A stretch of DNA of 64,000 nt from Octopus vulgaris. Its lineage: Eukaryota. The translations under genes were made by a program, and so were the position numbers. The stretch spans positions 65,968,001 through 66,032,000 of the forward strand of contig OX597831.1 of assembly GCA_951406725.2 (NCBI GenBank), written 5' to 3'. Positions within the stretch are counted from its first letter, which is position 1. Each line of letters begins with the position of its first letter. The notes below the pieces were generated by a model. It searched no databases and was not told the DNA's origin. It worked only from the letters and a program-made list of their open reading frames with translations. This document shows, piece after piece, positions 710 to 61,166 of this stretch.

Positions 710-754
710 GGCCAGAGTTCTTTCGTCACACTCCAGTGACCACATCAGTGGTCC
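710..754 (-). ncRNA. degenerate minimal hammerhead ribozyme motif
   Basis: Minus: ggacca CTGATGT g GTCAC tggagt GTGAC GAAA G aa C TC tggcc; 5-bp stem II, but A9 is replaced. Confidence 0.45.
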
Positions 755-1011
755 TTTGCTTTCTTCTTTCTTATTTGTGTGTCTCTCCTTACTAACCATC
801 AGCCATTTTGTATTTCTATTGTATGTGTCTTCATTTGCATATGCGCATATCTCTATGTGCATCTATGTGCATCTATGTTTAGTTGTGTATATGTGTGTGT
901 GTGTGGGGGGGGATGCCTGTAATATTTGTATCTCCTGTTTATATACATTCGTGTAATTTGTTTTTGTTTTTGTTTATTCTTATTTTGTTCACGTGTTTAC
1001 ACCCACTTATC

Positions 1012-1170
1012 ATTATTATTATTATTATTATTATTATTATTATTATTATTATTATTATTATTATTATCATCATTATCATTATTATTATTATTATGTATGT
1101 ATGTATGTATAACAATAATAATAGTAATAATAATAATAATAATAATAATAATAATAATAATAATAATAAT
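1012..1170. repeat. (ATT)n followed by (AAT)n microsatellites (mutually complementary)
   Basis: Read directly from the sequence. Confidence 0.95.
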
Positions 1171-1586
1171 AAAAAAACTAAGAAAAATAAAAAAAAAACT
1201 ATTTTCATTGTGTGCATTCATTACAAATCTTGCAATGTAATGCATATCCTTCAGTTCATGAGAAACAATAGGAAATGATCTTTGAATTAAAAGTCAGTAA
1301 ACTCACATTAGTAAATATTCTAGCAACTCTCTTCATAACGAGTTTCACATTTATTACCTATGCCACTTAATTGTTAGAAATAACTGATATCAGTAGGCTA
1401 CCAATGCCACTCATTCTACAGACGTGACTGCTTTTGTTGGCTGCATTCTTGGACACCAATAGAAGTTTTTTCGCTTTCTCCTTGACAATGCATTTTATCA
1501 TCTGTAGTGTTCCGAAATGCATCTGTGTGCGGAATGATAAGTTGTGGGATAATAAGCAGCATCCGTTTAATTTTAAGCAGTTATTT

Positions 1587-1689
1587 CTACTCTGTATATT
1601 CAACGGCCAATTTATATTCATAACATACATCTCTGTCATACCTACAGAAATTGTTCATGAAGACCCGCTGATAGATGCTGTTGTTATAT
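1587..1689 (-). CDS. candidate terminal coding exon, unknown protein (YNNSIYQRVFMNNFCRYDRDVCYEYKLAVEYTE*)
   Basis: Acceptor ttcattgtag at 1690/1691, phase-2 open frame of 33 codons to TAG, unique non-repeat sequence; no homology recognised. Confidence 0.3.
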
Positions 1690-1989
1690 CTACAATGAAC
1701 ATTGTCAGAAACAAAATATAAACTCTAGAAATATATTCTAAAGTATTGTGTACAATGCACAAACAATAACAATTCTGATTCATTGTTGAGTCCTTACCTA
1801 TAATTAAGCACACCCATGCACTTAATAGATAATTATATCATTTCAATGAAATCATGTATTTAACAAATACTCTATCCTTCTATCAACATTATGGTACCTT
1901 CTTAATATCATTCTAGTTTTATACACATGCATGCATTCCCTTTGCTAAATCATTGCTATATGCTCAAAAATATATAATCTTATATAGCA

Positions 1990-2518
1990 ATCAAAATCAA
2001 AATCATTTCGATGACTGGCATCCGTGCTAGCGGGGTGCAATGAGCCCCATACGAGTGTGATTGTTGACAGAGTGGCTATTCAAGTATGATCGTTACCAGC
2101 GTCGCCTTACTGGCACTTATGCCTGTGCTAGTTGGGTGCCAAGAGCACCATCTGAGCATGATCGTTGCCAGAGCAGCCAACTGGCTTCCATACCCATGGC
2201 ACGTAAAAGGGCACCATTCGAGCATGACCATTACCAACGTTGCTTCACTGGCACCTGTTCCGGTGGCACGCGTAAAAAGATTCGAGCGAGATCATTGCCA
2301 GTACCGCCTGACTGGCCCCCATGCCGGTAGCACGTAAAAAGCACCCACTACACTCTCGGAGTGGTTGGCGTTAGGAAAGGCATCCAGCTGTAGAAACTCT
2401 GCCAGATCAAGACTGGAGCTTGGTGCAGCCATCTGGTTTGCCAGCCCTCAGTCAAAATCGTCCAACCCATGCCAGCATGGAAAGCTGACGTTAAACAATG
2501 ATGATGATGATGATGATG
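1990..2518 (+). mobile_element. RTE-type LINE 3' end (family C), 5'-truncated
   Basis: Internal GGCACGTAAAAAGCACC units, conserved GGAAGGGCATCCAGCTGTAGAAAC...CCAACCCATGC(T/C)AGCATGGAAA end, (GAT)n tail. Confidence 0.85.
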
Positions 2519-57752: not shown

Positions 57753-58780
57753 ATGACCCAATTGTCAGCAGCACAGAGAGGACAAGCTATTGGCCGATTG
57801 CAAGCAGGGCATCATGCCCTGATTGTTGCAGAAGCTTACAGTGTCCATTTCAGCACCATCTATCACCTGCAACAGCGATACAACAATACCAACAGCATTG
57901 CAGGCCATGCCCACAGATCCCCTGGGTGACCACACTCATGCAGGACCACTTCACCCACCAGCAACATCTCCATGATTGCTTCAGACTGGCCAGCATGAAA
58001 GCTCATGAGACCATTGACACTGGACAGTGACCCATCAGCGATGAGATGCTATGACGTCGACTGGCCGCCAACAACCTGCAATTGCCATCATCCTGCTCGA
58101 GGACCTGTCCTCACCACCTGCCACCATCAGGCATGACTTCTGTGGGCTACACAGCACTGACATTGGTCGATAGTCTTCTCTGATGAGAGCTGGTACTGCA
58201 TTTCCACTTCGGATGGCAGAGTGAGGGTGTGGCGTAGGAGGAGATGAACACCACAGAAGTGCATGTGAACACTACAGAGGTGCAGAGATGTGTCGGGTGG
58301 CCAAAGCATCATGGTTTGGGGTGCTATAGGCCTGATTCAGAGAATTGGGCCCCATGTGTTCCAAAATGTTGGTGCAAGCAAAGGAAATGACATCACAGCG
58401 CAGCACTACATTGAACAGATCCTAAGAACTCACATTGTGCCTTTCTTCACGAGTCACCATAGCCATGTGTTCCAGCAGGACAATTTTCCCTCACACACAG
58501 CAAGGGTCACCATGGACTTCCTGTGTAAGCACAACATCAGAACTATGCTGTGGCTGGCTCTCAGCCTGGATTTGAACCCAATTGAATACCTGTAGGATGA
58601 AATCCAGAGATGGCTGAACCAGGTGGTTCCAAAGCTGACAACTTGTGTGGAACTGGAGGCAGCTTTCCTCGGGTGTGGGCACAGGTGCCACTGGCTTTTG
58701 TGAACTGCCTCATACATTCCATGTACCGACAGTGTATGGCTGTTCTGAGCACCCAGGGAGGGCATACACAGTACTGAACA
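57753..58780 (+). pseudogene. Tc1 transposase pseudogene
   Basis: MTQLSAAQRGQAIGRLQAG (HTH), VFSDES, RVWRR, GGQSIMVWGAIG, FQQDN.PSHTAR, SLDLNPIEYL*. Confidence 0.92.
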
Positions 58781-59404
58781 TGTCATGCCATACAATCTCA
58801 ATGTGCTGGATCCACCCACTACCAGAACACATGACAACAACCCATAGACTGTGGTCAAAATGCATCCAAGAAATTGACTTCATCAGATTTATGAAAATTT
58901 ATCTCTGACATAATGAAATTAAAACATATTTCACAGTCACACGTCTTGTGTTTCTTTTGCGGTTCAGTGTATTTTATGTTGGAACTAATCTGCCGAAGGA
59001 AATTTGTTTACATTTTGAAACTATTTCTATTAGCTTCCTTTTTTTCTCTACTAGATATTTTCATGGTTCTACAGTAGATAAATTCTCATAATTTTCTAGT
59101 TGGAGAAGTACCCACTTGTATGTGTTCTTTGTAAGAATATTTTATCACATTTCTTTTCTGGTTCTGTCTCTGTATAAGTGAATCCATATTGTTTTGGATA
59201 TTGTAGTATGACCTTCCTGTATACTCTGGCATACTTCACCACAAGCCCATCTTTTTCATCTTGTTAGAAAAGCCTGGGGGCTTGTGTTTTATTGTTTTAA
59301 CTTTTATTGTTAGTCTTTTATTACATTCTTCCTACCTTATCTACTGAACTTTTCTATAACAATCTTGTTTGCAGCCAATTTTGGATTCACCCTAGCTGCG
59401 AAAA

Positions 59405-60040
59405 GTATGTGGCTCATTGGTTAGGGTATTTGGCTCATGATCGTAATGTCATGAGTTCAATACCCAATGGCATGTTGTGCCCTCGAGCAAGATACTTTAT
59501 ATCACATTGCTCCAGTCCACTCAGCTGGGGCAAAAATAAGTTTACCTGCAATTCAAAGGGCAGGCCTTGTTGTTGTTGTTTATTCCTTCTTGAGCCATGC
59601 CTGGCTCATAAGGGCCAGTTTCCCAGTTTCTTGGCGTATAGGTTCCCCACCTGGACGGGACGCCGGTCCATTGCAGGTGAGCTGCAAGATGCAGGAGGAA
59701 AGAGCGAGAGAAAGTTGTGGCAAAAGAGTCAGCAGAAGTTGGCCATTACCTTCTGTCGGAGCCGCGTGGAGCTTAGGTGTTTCACTCATAAACACACACA
59801 TTGCCCAATCTGAGATTCGAACCCACAATCCCTCAACCGCGAGTCCGCTGCTCTAATCACTAGGCCATGTGCCTCCATGCAGGCCTTGTCACATTCTGTG
59901 TCACACTGGATCTCCCAGAAAACTAAGTTAAGAGGGTGCATGTCTGTAGAGTACTCAGCCACTTACACGTTAATTTCACAAGTGGGTCGTGCTGTTGATC
60001 AGATCAACTGGAACACTCATTGCTGTAACTGGTATAACGC
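59405..60040 (+). mobile_element. old SINE (family-E-like head, tail as in the 10152 element) interrupted by SINE B
   Basis: Halves at 59405-59570 and 59880-60040. Confidence 0.7.
59571..59878 (-). mobile_element. SINE family B
   Basis: TSD GCAGGCCTTGT at 59560-59570 and 59879-59889. Confidence 0.9.
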
Positions 60041-60240
60041 CAGTTTCACTCCAGCCACATAAACGTGGTTTGTATTAAATTATCCACTGCCATCCCCAGC
60101 AATGTTTTCTATCTCACAAAACAATTCATTAGCACCCTGTAGAAGCCAGCTTCTGCAGAAGCATCTTCTAAACTTATTTCTCCCACTTGAAGTTCTTTTT
60201 TTGGACTCCAGTAATTCTAGCTGAAATATATTAATTACTA

Positions 60241-60408
60241 ACCCACAACACTCACGGAGTGGTTGGCATTAGGAAGGGCATCCAGCTGTAGAAACACTGC
60301 CAGGTCAGACTGGGGCCTGGTGCAGCCTTCCGGCTTCCCAGATCCCGGTCGAACCGTCCAACCCATGCTAGCATGAAAAATGGACGTTAAACAACGATGA
60401 TGATGATG
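60241..60408 (+). mobile_element. RTE 3' end (family C)
   Basis: Family C terminus. Confidence 0.85.
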
Positions 60409-60886
60409 AAAGGAGGCGTATTATTCATTTGAGATAGACTTCATGTAATTTTCTTTGTCTTCCTTTGTAGTGAAATTTAGTTTATCACCTGGTTTTCAGA
60501 AGTTGAATATTGCCAATGGTTGTTAGTTAATTAATATACCAACTCACTGTTGACCTTTAAATCATATACTTCATGGACAACGGTTTATCTGTTCGGCTCT
60601 TTTAAGAATACAAATTTCTCAGAAGCATAAACAATTAAACAATATCTGAGACTAAGTTATTACTTATAGTTTTCAAGAGAAATTGTGATGAAAATTACCA
60701 CCTTATAACTTTTTAATTCTAATGTTAAAACCCCTTGTTTGACTTTCTAAAACACAGAGACACGTTAATAAATTATCATGTGCTCAGAGAACAGCAAGAA
60801 ACAAAACGATGACATACATACGCATTCTAAAAATATTCCAGCAGATTTATGCATGAATATGCTAAGCAGTGTTGTATTTCACCATT

Positions 60887-61166
60887 GGAGAACAACTTCT
60901 CCTTTCAGATAAAGTGTATCTACAATACACTCAACTGATTGACATGAGGGAACTTTGAGACAGACACCAGTGTTTTGACCTTGTCTTTTCAGTGACTCTA
61001 AACAAGAATGATGGTCTTAGTTTATTGAATGAATATGCTAATCATGTTGACTGGAGGTAGCTTTGACTGAAGAGACACACGCAAGTTGAAACACTAGTGT
61101 CTCAACGTCCTTCTATTTCAATGAATTGTGTTGTAAACACACATTGTCTGAAAAGAGATGTTCTCT
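60887..61166. mobile_element. quasi-palindromic element with two divergent hammerhead motifs
   Basis: GGAGAACA...TTCAGATAAAGTGT / ACACATTGTCTGAA...TGTTCTCT arms; motifs at 60954-60995 (-) and 61063-61105 (+). Confidence 0.65.
61063..61105 (+). ncRNA. canonical-core minimal hammerhead ribozyme
   Basis: TTGA CTGAAGA GAC acacgcaa GTT GAAA CACTAGTG TC TCAA; palindromic stem III, GUC site at 61101. Confidence 0.75.

Follow-up and report, generated by a model that had tools for sequence, protein, structure and literature searches.

A 64,000-nucleotide stretch of the Octopus vulgaris genome (contig OX597831.1 of assembly GCA_951406725.2, positions 65,968,001 to 66,032,000, forward strand; hereafter the window) contains numerous type-I hammerhead ribozymes (HHRs) or their remains. 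These appear to be the 3' ends of Penelope-like elements (PLEs) together with retrozymes of 356–363 nt that were likely copied into (TA)n by PLE reverse transcriptase (RT). In addition, a lineage of long interspersed nuclear elements (LINEs) of L1/Tx1 type inserts at a fixed site 5' of the retrozyme HHRs. The probability of this reading is put at roughly 80%. The HHR population itself is known biology. What is new are the PLE signatures on young retrozyme insertions and a LINE lineage that is aimed at ribozyme-adjacent DNA.

Hammerhead motifs and their families

A preliminary description of this DNA had placed type-I HHRs at 14 coordinates, by which the sites are named here. An HHR or its remains was found at all 14. 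Seven of the sites, and the minus members of two inverted pairs, lie on the minus strand. A strict descriptor, tested against 60 local dinucleotide shuffles of the window, recovered three cores (18619-, 18982-, 61067+) compared with 0.07±0.25 per shuffle (maximum 1). Four relaxed settings gave 3–5 cores versus 0.5–2.0, and were matched by 0–5 of the 60 shuffles. A second descriptor, which permits the 9.1 bulge and core variants from a list picked post hoc with the families already seen, gave seven matches versus 0.36±0.57 (maximum 2, 100 shuffles); its canonical-core subset gave five versus 0.24. The predicted excess of motifs over shuffled background was thus obtained. Eight sites (16898, 18584, 18947, 19842, 37183, 42097, 43012, and 61063) passed at least one descriptor. 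The other six (710, 20613, 20893, 27046, 27194, and 60954) failed both, and here the earlier claim holds for remains of HHRs only. Better-formed relatives of four of these six are present elsewhere, from which the window copies mostly differ by C-to-T, G-to-A, or truncation. The six copies are probably decayed or non-canonical, and inactive. The CUGANGA core that had been ascribed to the sites occurs at some of them, and the others have UUGAAAA (18.6 kb), CCGAUGA (42097), CUGUAGA (19842), GUGAACA (27194), and CUGAUGU (710).

Thirteen of the 14 sites belong to nine dispersed repeat families, leaving one orphan, 43012. All sites except 43012 gave 214 to 4434 first-look candidates in the genome; these counts are lower bounds, and that of 27046 is swollen by a TA run. 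Searches for exact patterns yielded 730 copies of the 42-nt HHR of the 18.6-kb family, 366 matches to a 33-nt pattern of the 42.1-kb family, and 116 copies of a 55-nt stretch of the 16898 family, with none for the reversed controls. A (TA)5 run lies within 300 nt of nine of the 14 sites, versus 32% of window positions. The reported association with (TA)n does not extend to 710, 20613, 43012, 60954, and 61063; the young families do end in (TA)n.

The window is AT-rich (36% GC), and microsatellites and short interspersed nuclear elements (SINEs) are abundant in it. That its motifs are chance matches in such DNA is hardly conceivable. None of the individual sites folds much better than its own shuffles (z -1.9 to +0.8), a comparison that is uninformative for monomers. 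Loose descriptors also give 1–2 chance matches per window, and 43012 has no family. Against chance stand the descriptor excess, the hundreds of exact copies, and the helix covariation described below. Chance is refuted everywhere except possibly at 43012.

Intact-looking HHRs occur in the window at about 1 per 9 kb, and the earlier figure of one motif per 5 kb is reached only if decayed copies are counted. After masking of the family by which each locus had been selected, 79 other loci (624 kb) gave 50 matches (29 canonical), versus 1–5 in five shuffles; the 50 include three tandem-copy triplets and a few probable chance matches. This flank density of about 1 per 12 kb would correspond to roughly 2 x 10^5 HHRs in the 2.8-Gb assembly if the non-random flanks were typical, and it is probably too high because the flanks were chosen beside HHR repeats. 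For the giant squid, 235 Rfam hammerheads have been reported. The density sampled here is far above that, and so cephalopod annotation probably undercounts HHRs. An Rfam scan of the window had no hammerhead among the matches listed (150 of 234), only microsatellite-driven microRNA-like matches. At least 12 more HHR families foreign to the window, most with a palindromic stem III, are present in the flanks of L148–L227 (L numbers denote genomic loci of repeat relatives that were compared with the window copies).

Penelope-like 3' ends and non-LTR retrozymes

On sequence grounds, the 710, 16898, 19842, and 27194 families are the 3' ends of, or are derived from, ordinary PLEs. Their clade names (Neptune, Hydra, and Penelope/Poseidon) are provisional and taken from motifs. 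The 710 island (2005 candidates) follows the end of a GIY-YIG-type open reading frame (ORF) in L040 and L127. It is also 3' of ORFs of 826–1312 aa in all eight loci chosen by that ORF, most of which have an inverted 5' copy. The long ORFs carry YVDD and C-terminal YVGET/H..H endonuclease motifs, as read from the sequence. The 16898 family (1094 candidates) has an endonuclease C-terminus about 0.7–1.1 kb upstream in L201, L054, L373, and L374, with CxxC and CxH around E/N, a pattern described for Hydra PLEs. The 27194 type (1928 candidates), whose stem II is intact in relatives, is contiguous with an endonuclease remnant in two of six loci (L244 and L382). For these last two families the upstream ORF evidence consists of the endonuclease end only, on the same strand as the HHR.

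Relatives of the 19842 family (2025 candidates), at 76–85% identity, lie about 0.7–1 kb past a Neptune-like RT/GIY-YIG ORF in L126, L149, L184, and L279. An HHR follows this ORF in L126 and in all three further loci that have enough flank. The GIY-YIG domain of the ORF was matched at E 0.0045, and its tie to 19842 runs via the 76–85% relatives. A PLE with a 784-aa ORF that adjoins one 19842 copy was considered as the parent and rejected, as it carries a different HHR. That PLE (L128:3213-9901; L128–L139) is young, with a 446-aa ORF1, a 784-aa RT plus GIY-YIG ORF, many open copies, and 13970 first-look candidates; the HHR of its pseudo-LTR (pLTR, where LTR is long terminal repeat) has a U3:A8 core.

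Other traits also agree with a PLE origin. The features of endonuclease-bearing (EN+) PLEs, namely 5' truncation, partial tandems, and an inverted 5' copy, are present. Minimal-HHR traits (a stem I of 4–5 bp, the 9.1 bulge, and no loop 1–loop 2 residues) are shown by 16898, 19842, and 710. As these families are 3' ends of ordinary PLEs, one of them with intact ORFs, they are repeat remnants and not the separate small RNA elements that had been proposed. The core variants in them are consistent within families. In the 19842 family, 37 of 39 copies have U at position 6, and position 7 is variable. Of the 31 copies of the 710 family compared, 26 have the core CUGAUGC, including copies with intact frames. 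C9 may be either a tolerated variant or the mark of an inactive ribozyme in a spreading element. The 710-family PLE of L140–L147 has frames intact to 1312 aa, yet C stands at HHR position 9 family-wide. The variants C9, U6, and C4 in still-spreading elements offer natural experiments on the dependence of PLEs on an active HHR. A query with 42720–43200, a region with a decayed HHR that had been overlooked (Table 1), gave 878 candidates.

The 18.6-kb, 42.1-kb, and 27046 families are assigned by their sequences to one lineage of non-LTR retrozymes with canonical-type HHRs. Their units are 363, 363, and 356 nt long, with GC contents of 41%, 44%, and 42%, respectively, and so fall within the tandem period of about 170–400 nt and the GC content below 45% that characterize such retrozymes. 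The three units are homologous throughout (alignment scores 209, 206, and 154 versus 91–94±11). This contradicts the statement that their helices share no sequence. The description of the motifs as largely unrelated and minimal is right in that several families exist, and wrong in that these three are one lineage. The HHRs of 18.6 kb and 42097 have a 6-bp stem I, a 4-bp stem II, and invariant UAC and CAA loop residues, and do not conform to the minimal PLE type. The 42.1-kb family has 2216 candidates. The 27046 unit is 87% identical to a tandem unit in L089, and the 5' stem-I strand of its HHR is shortened by (TA)n. Covariation supports the helices. Across eight HHRs of retrozyme copies, the 27046 type being outside the count, 11 of 13 pairs, including 3:8, are altered on both sides. 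None of 500 shuffles did as well; related sequences can beat such a control, and slid partners pair in just 31–50%. Covariation among copies, which had been predicted, is thus found.

The 20.6/61-kb family (214 candidates, about 75% identity) is probably an older retrozyme, with tandem copies and the UAC/CAA residues. Homology of the 61-kb unit to the three retrozyme units was rejected, since nothing rose above shuffles. The PLE and retrozyme origins first proposed are upheld by ORF linkage for four families and by tandem ORF-less units for three.

The retrozyme insertions are 0.6 to 6.8 units long and carry the marks of PLE insertion. An inverted 5' arm is present in 26 of 37 insertions of the 18.6-kb family and 14 of 31 of the 42.1-kb family; the former count is inflated because 16 loci came from an arm-containing query, and the arm is also present in 10 of 20 pattern-picked 18.6-kb loci. 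Free 3' ends are followed by (TA)4 in 54 of 62 and 34 of 45 cases, respectively, versus 7% of random positions. Each family has two preferred UA-rich 3' ends, both distant from the cleavage site. The template therefore crossed the cleavage junction, as expected of a circular template or of a multimer that had not been cut. Units diverge by 0.8% inside versus 2.9% between insertions at 18.6 kb, and by 2.2% versus 3.3% at 42.1 kb, a likeness expected from a single template.

An alternative view holds that the 363-nt units are merely pLTRs of autonomous PLEs whose ORF-bearing copies went unsampled, with no separate retrozyme. The insertion signature is indeed that of PLEs, PLE copies are mostly 5'-truncated, and the long loci examined number 40 of about 2000 per family. 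However, no PLE ORF was continuous with a retrozyme unit in any of those 40 loci of 9.9 kb (18.6-kb and 42.1-kb families). What lies upstream of a unit is another unit, up to seven in a row, and never an ORF, while the 710, 16898, and 27194 families gave ORF ends in similar or smaller samples. This view is very unlikely. In L180, a PLE remnant that precedes the 42.1-kb copy was rejected as part of the unit; it ends in its own (TA)n and is a separate insertion. The ORF1 within some retrozyme copies is likewise a flanked insertion and not a coding capacity of the retrozyme.

The reading favored here, PLE ends plus retrozymes, suggests the following cycle. Reverse transcription of PLEs would start at the RNA 3' end and mostly abort, leaving solo HHR islands that decay. 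Retrozyme arrays would be transcribed, the tandem HHRs would cut the RNA to monomers, and the monomers would be circularized. A PLE acting in trans could then prime inside the circles, at UA-rich sites, and copy them for 0.6–7 rounds. The near-identical young insertions make such a PLE-driven, circle-templated cycle directly testable in an invertebrate. In L019, L139, and L180, retrozyme copies have inserted into the (TA)n that terminates PLE copies, or close to it. At L149:5939-8016, one side of a head-to-head insertion is a retrozyme 3' end and the opposite side is the 3' end of a Neptune-like PLE, with the two fused in sense. Contigs assembled from three sequencing runs, which are guessed to be RNA, span 21–25 of 30 bins and are silent on expression, strand, cleavage, and circles. 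The 18.6-kb unit (18358–19040) was found in sequencing runs of five organism labels and is therefore probably common to related species.

LINE insertions ahead of retrozyme ribozymes

LINEs of L1/Tx1 type and their ORF1-only derivatives insert site-specifically 28–37 nt 5' of retrozyme HHRs. These insertions had been overlooked in the preliminary description. The pattern emerged when the ORF1 protein and 3' untranslated regions (UTRs) alone served as queries, without retrozyme sequence. For counts of 3' ends, the query locus and duplicates were excluded and ends short of the poly(A) signal were omitted. In the ORF1-only subfamilies, 32 distinct 3' ends were counted. An HHR core lies at +41 to +46 from AATAAA after 20 of these, a target duplication and the next element come after 11, and a decayed HHR after one. 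Among the 18 ORF2-type ends, 13 have an HHR behind them, in 11 cases at +37. Duplications of 16–17 nt surround full-length copies, target duplications also flank 5'-truncated elements (L325, L351, and L326), and the truncated copies in L325 and L351 retain the upstream half of the retrozyme unit. Empty target sites are present in neighboring units of the same arrays (L277, L292, and L356). As in Tx1-type target specificity, more than 20% of the flanks are at one target and duplications accompany it. Among the targets are the 42.1-kb, 18.6-kb-type, and 27046 families, together with more HHR families (L266, L345, L362, and L364). Target sequences differ among the retrozyme families, and the orientation is always that of the HHR.

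The window itself holds one such insertion, a broken ORF1 (Table 1). It has 49% identity to the ORF1 of L071/L292 (E 5e-50) and is on the same strand as the 27046 HHR. It starts at the fixed target site, at which a further HHR of the 27046 unit would be expected to follow, and the 3' part of the element is absent. Complete ORF1-only elements (L292 and relatives) possess a 5' UTR, open frames of 413–481 aa, and a 3' UTR with AATAAA, without ORF2. RT (RVT_1) was matched at E 2e-31 in a sister element, RT and zinc knuckle were matched in the HHR-adjacent L362/L363, and the ORF2 end upstream of some 27046 copies matched zf-RVT (E 1.2e-10). The zf-CCHC match of ORF1 is weak (E 0.065), and atlas comparison gave 0.91–0.93 to CCHC/ZCCHC3-like clusters. 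The closest species-named homologue of ORF2, at 56%, is from Argonauta; the homologue search yielded no clade names.

It could be asked if the HHR and the unit downstream of it belong to the 3' end of the LINE, either as a captured retrozyme tail or with retrozymes as SINE-like tails. The composites in L303 and L332 speak for this, being 5'-truncated within the LINE, with an inverted retrozyme arm and no upstream half-unit. LINE and retrozyme RNA are therefore sometimes copied as one, and some composites, as in L303, were copied whole with the inverted retrozyme arm. Yet target duplications flank full-length and 5'-truncated elements alike, nothing but the duplication, and no HHR, lies between tandem elements, and the same site is occupied by different subfamilies and is empty in neighboring units. 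As a general rule the tail reading is largely refuted already, and it is considered unlikely. The idea that 27046 is a LINE 3' UTR was likewise rejected after the target duplications and empty sites were found.

In the reading of site-specific insertion, the LINE endonuclease would recognize DNA 28–37 nt ahead of the HHR core. Since this site is just ahead of the HHR, transcription of the array would include the LINE, and the adjoining HHR would trim the resulting LINE RNA. Unlike the insertion itself, this use of the ribozyme by LINE RNA is something that we infer. A three-tier parasitism can be tentatively suggested, at slightly less than even odds. PLEs would mobilize circular retrozymes, and the L1/Tx1-type LINE lineage and its ORF1-only derivatives would have specialized on retrozymes and tracked their diversification. 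The array would transcribe the LINE, host HHRs would trim and perhaps circularize its RNA, and composites would also ride the PLE machinery into (TA)n. If true, LINE insertion at ribozyme-adjacent DNA would be a new target class for sequence-specific retrotransposons, and such a LINE would mirror R2 by borrowing the ribozyme of its target.

The last of these steps has a competitor of its own, in which the LINE chooses the site as an abundant harmless repeat and ribozyme proximity is incidental. In the accessible text of PMC4494074, Tx1 families commonly target transposons and microsatellites, and sister subfamilies here use non-HHR targets. The offset of 28–37 nt and the orientation are, in contrast, constant across retrozyme families with differing targets; shared ancestry of site and element could also give a constant offset. 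An incidental site is quite possible, if on balance doubtful.

Several points weigh against the overall reading. A Pfam search of the 1311-aa protein of the 710 family gave no match. No ORF was found upstream of the 37183 type in six loci, and 43012 has no family member among the loci compared, hence no ORF link. Cleavage, circles, and strand-specific RNA of the retrozymes are predictions, and eight of nine Xenopus dimers were uncleaved according to the accessible part of a 2026 preprint (bioRxiv 10.64898/2026.07.22.740005). Homogeneous source arrays could also yield the likeness of units within insertions. Variants private to a single insertion number only 13 (18.6 kb) and 8 (42.1 kb), and the likeness is weaker at 42.1 kb. 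The fusion in L149 of a retrozyme arm, in sense, to a Neptune-like endonuclease fragment may hint at a Neptune-like helper PLE, and it is the sole such fusion. For the LINEs, the Tx1 label is a provisional one from domains and targeting. Furthermore, 25 other ends of sister ORF1 subfamilies (about 80% identity) lie at repeats without an HHR; two late regex matches among them were excluded as targets.

Other targets of the ORF1 elements were also seen. The 3' flanks of L291, L320, L365, and L276 contain a further target, a repeat that opens with CTTAGGTTTCCAGTCC and could be structured. Stacks of at least five 1.8-kb ORF1-only units are present in L273, L274, L372 (C4:70.03-70.05 Mb), L275–L276, and L284–L287. 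They continue into divergent ORF1s and ORF2, at non-HHR targets.

Relation to known elements and other features of the window

The comparisons that follow concern the accessible parts of the papers cited. Truncated PLEs have been described to leave solo minimal HHRs in large and heterogeneous sets (Cervera & de la Pena 2014, PMC4209133). The window HHRs resemble those of pLTRs in their short stem I, bulge after position 9, G10.1-C11.1, palindromic stem III, and U3:A8 variant. They are also alike in occurring mostly as solo copies or as opposite-strand pairs 100–700 bp apart, with thousands per genome. They differ in the family-wide cores CUGAUGC (C9, with intact ORFs), CUGUNGA (U6), and GUGAACA, and in a density that points to the 10^5 scale versus 2000–9000 per genome. 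The retrozymes resemble those of Cervera & de la Pena (2020, PMC7229834) as ORF-less tandem units of 350–390 nt in a mollusc, with GC below 45%, one canonical type-I HHR per unit, and coexisting PLEs as proposed mobilizers. Massive solo PLE HHRs, the U3:A8 variant, and tandem retrozymes are thus already published (PMC4209133, PMC7229834), and the population is not a hidden one, as had been thought. PMC7229834 and the 2026 preprint, which covers mainly vertebrates and proposes a PLE origin for retrozymes, argue from co-occurrence and pLTR homology. Here, young insertions have inverted arms of PLE type, terminal (TA)n, and priming sites inside the unit, and they are themselves LINE targets.

The LINEs resemble Tx1-clade elements (Tx1, Keno, Kibi, Koshi, and Tx1-Mar; PMC4494074) in an RT with a C-terminal zinc knuckle, a CCHC-type ORF1, a preference for a single site within a multicopy repeat, target duplications, and tandem insertions at one site. 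The targets in that paper are DNA transposons, small nuclear RNA and 5S genes, LTR elements, microsatellites, and unnamed "satellites" that are not described further. Its accessible text has neither "hammerhead" nor "Penelope", whereas the LINEs here target several retrozyme families, in the DNA 5' of the ribozyme. The literature search found no report of LINE targeting of hammerhead or retrozyme DNA, with subscription journals and Repbase Reports mostly outside its coverage. HAL1 (half-L1; PMC5753468) is similarly non-autonomous, with ORF1 only between LINE 5' and 3' ends. HAL1 is a mammalian L1 derivative, and unlike it the 1.75-kb units here are site-specific and tandem-stacked inside retrozymes. 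R2-type LINEs with a 5' hepatitis delta virus (HDV)-like ribozyme (PMC6765202, PMC4494074) are co-transcribed with the target and released by self-cleavage, as may be the case here. R2 has its own ribozyme at the 5' end; here it is the target's, 3' of the element.

Table 1. Positions of HHR-bearing and associated elements in the window.
Feature	Position	Strand	Details
5'-truncated PLE, 3' end	590..1197	-	HHR 710-754, core CUGAUGU; family core CUGAUGC
Hydra-type PLE 3' end	16890..17070	+	Minimal HHR 16898-16956
Young retrozyme insertion	18358..19160	-	363-nt unit 18358-18720, partial unit 18721-19042, inverted 5' arm 18998-19160; (TA)n at both ends; canonical-type U3:A8 HHRs at 18584-18625 and 18947-18988
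~190-nt element from Neptune-like PLE 3' end	19783..19972	+	HHR 19846-19881, U at core position 6
Decayed inverted HHR pair	20613-20662, 20887-20936	-, +	Old 61-kb family; both fail both descriptors
Broken ORF1 and 5' end of L1/Tx1-type element	25474..26315	-	Starts at fixed target site of 27046 unit
Older ~356-nt retrozyme unit	26783..27093	-	HHR 27049-27092; resumes beyond SINE 26355-26786, to about 26315
PLE 3' end	27118..27260	-	Minimal HHR (G3:C8) 27194-27244, stem II decayed
Long dispersed element, 3' end and short inverted arm	37035..37390	+	HHR 37183-37270, long stem II
Young retrozyme insertion, 1.1 units of 363 nt	41908..42314	+	Canonical-type HHR 42097-42141, core CCGAUGA
Decayed HHR	42776-42820	-	Older sister of 710 family; stem II and 3' end common to both
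Orphan HHR-like motif	43012..43050	-	Passes second descriptor; like pLTR HHR of young 784-aa PLE
Inverted pair, old tandem family	60957-60996 (decayed), 61062-61105 (near-intact)	-, +	Period about 310-336 nt

The 37183 family (2550 candidates) shares at least 2 kb of non-coding upstream sequence. Weak PLE-like protein remnants are present at 34171–35292 (+, E 5e-5) and 62639–62779 (-, E 0.011), with no clear HHR downstream. The window also contains very long microsatellite arrays, with 163 units of (ATG)n at 44167–44656 and 115 units of (ATA)n at 46169–46590.

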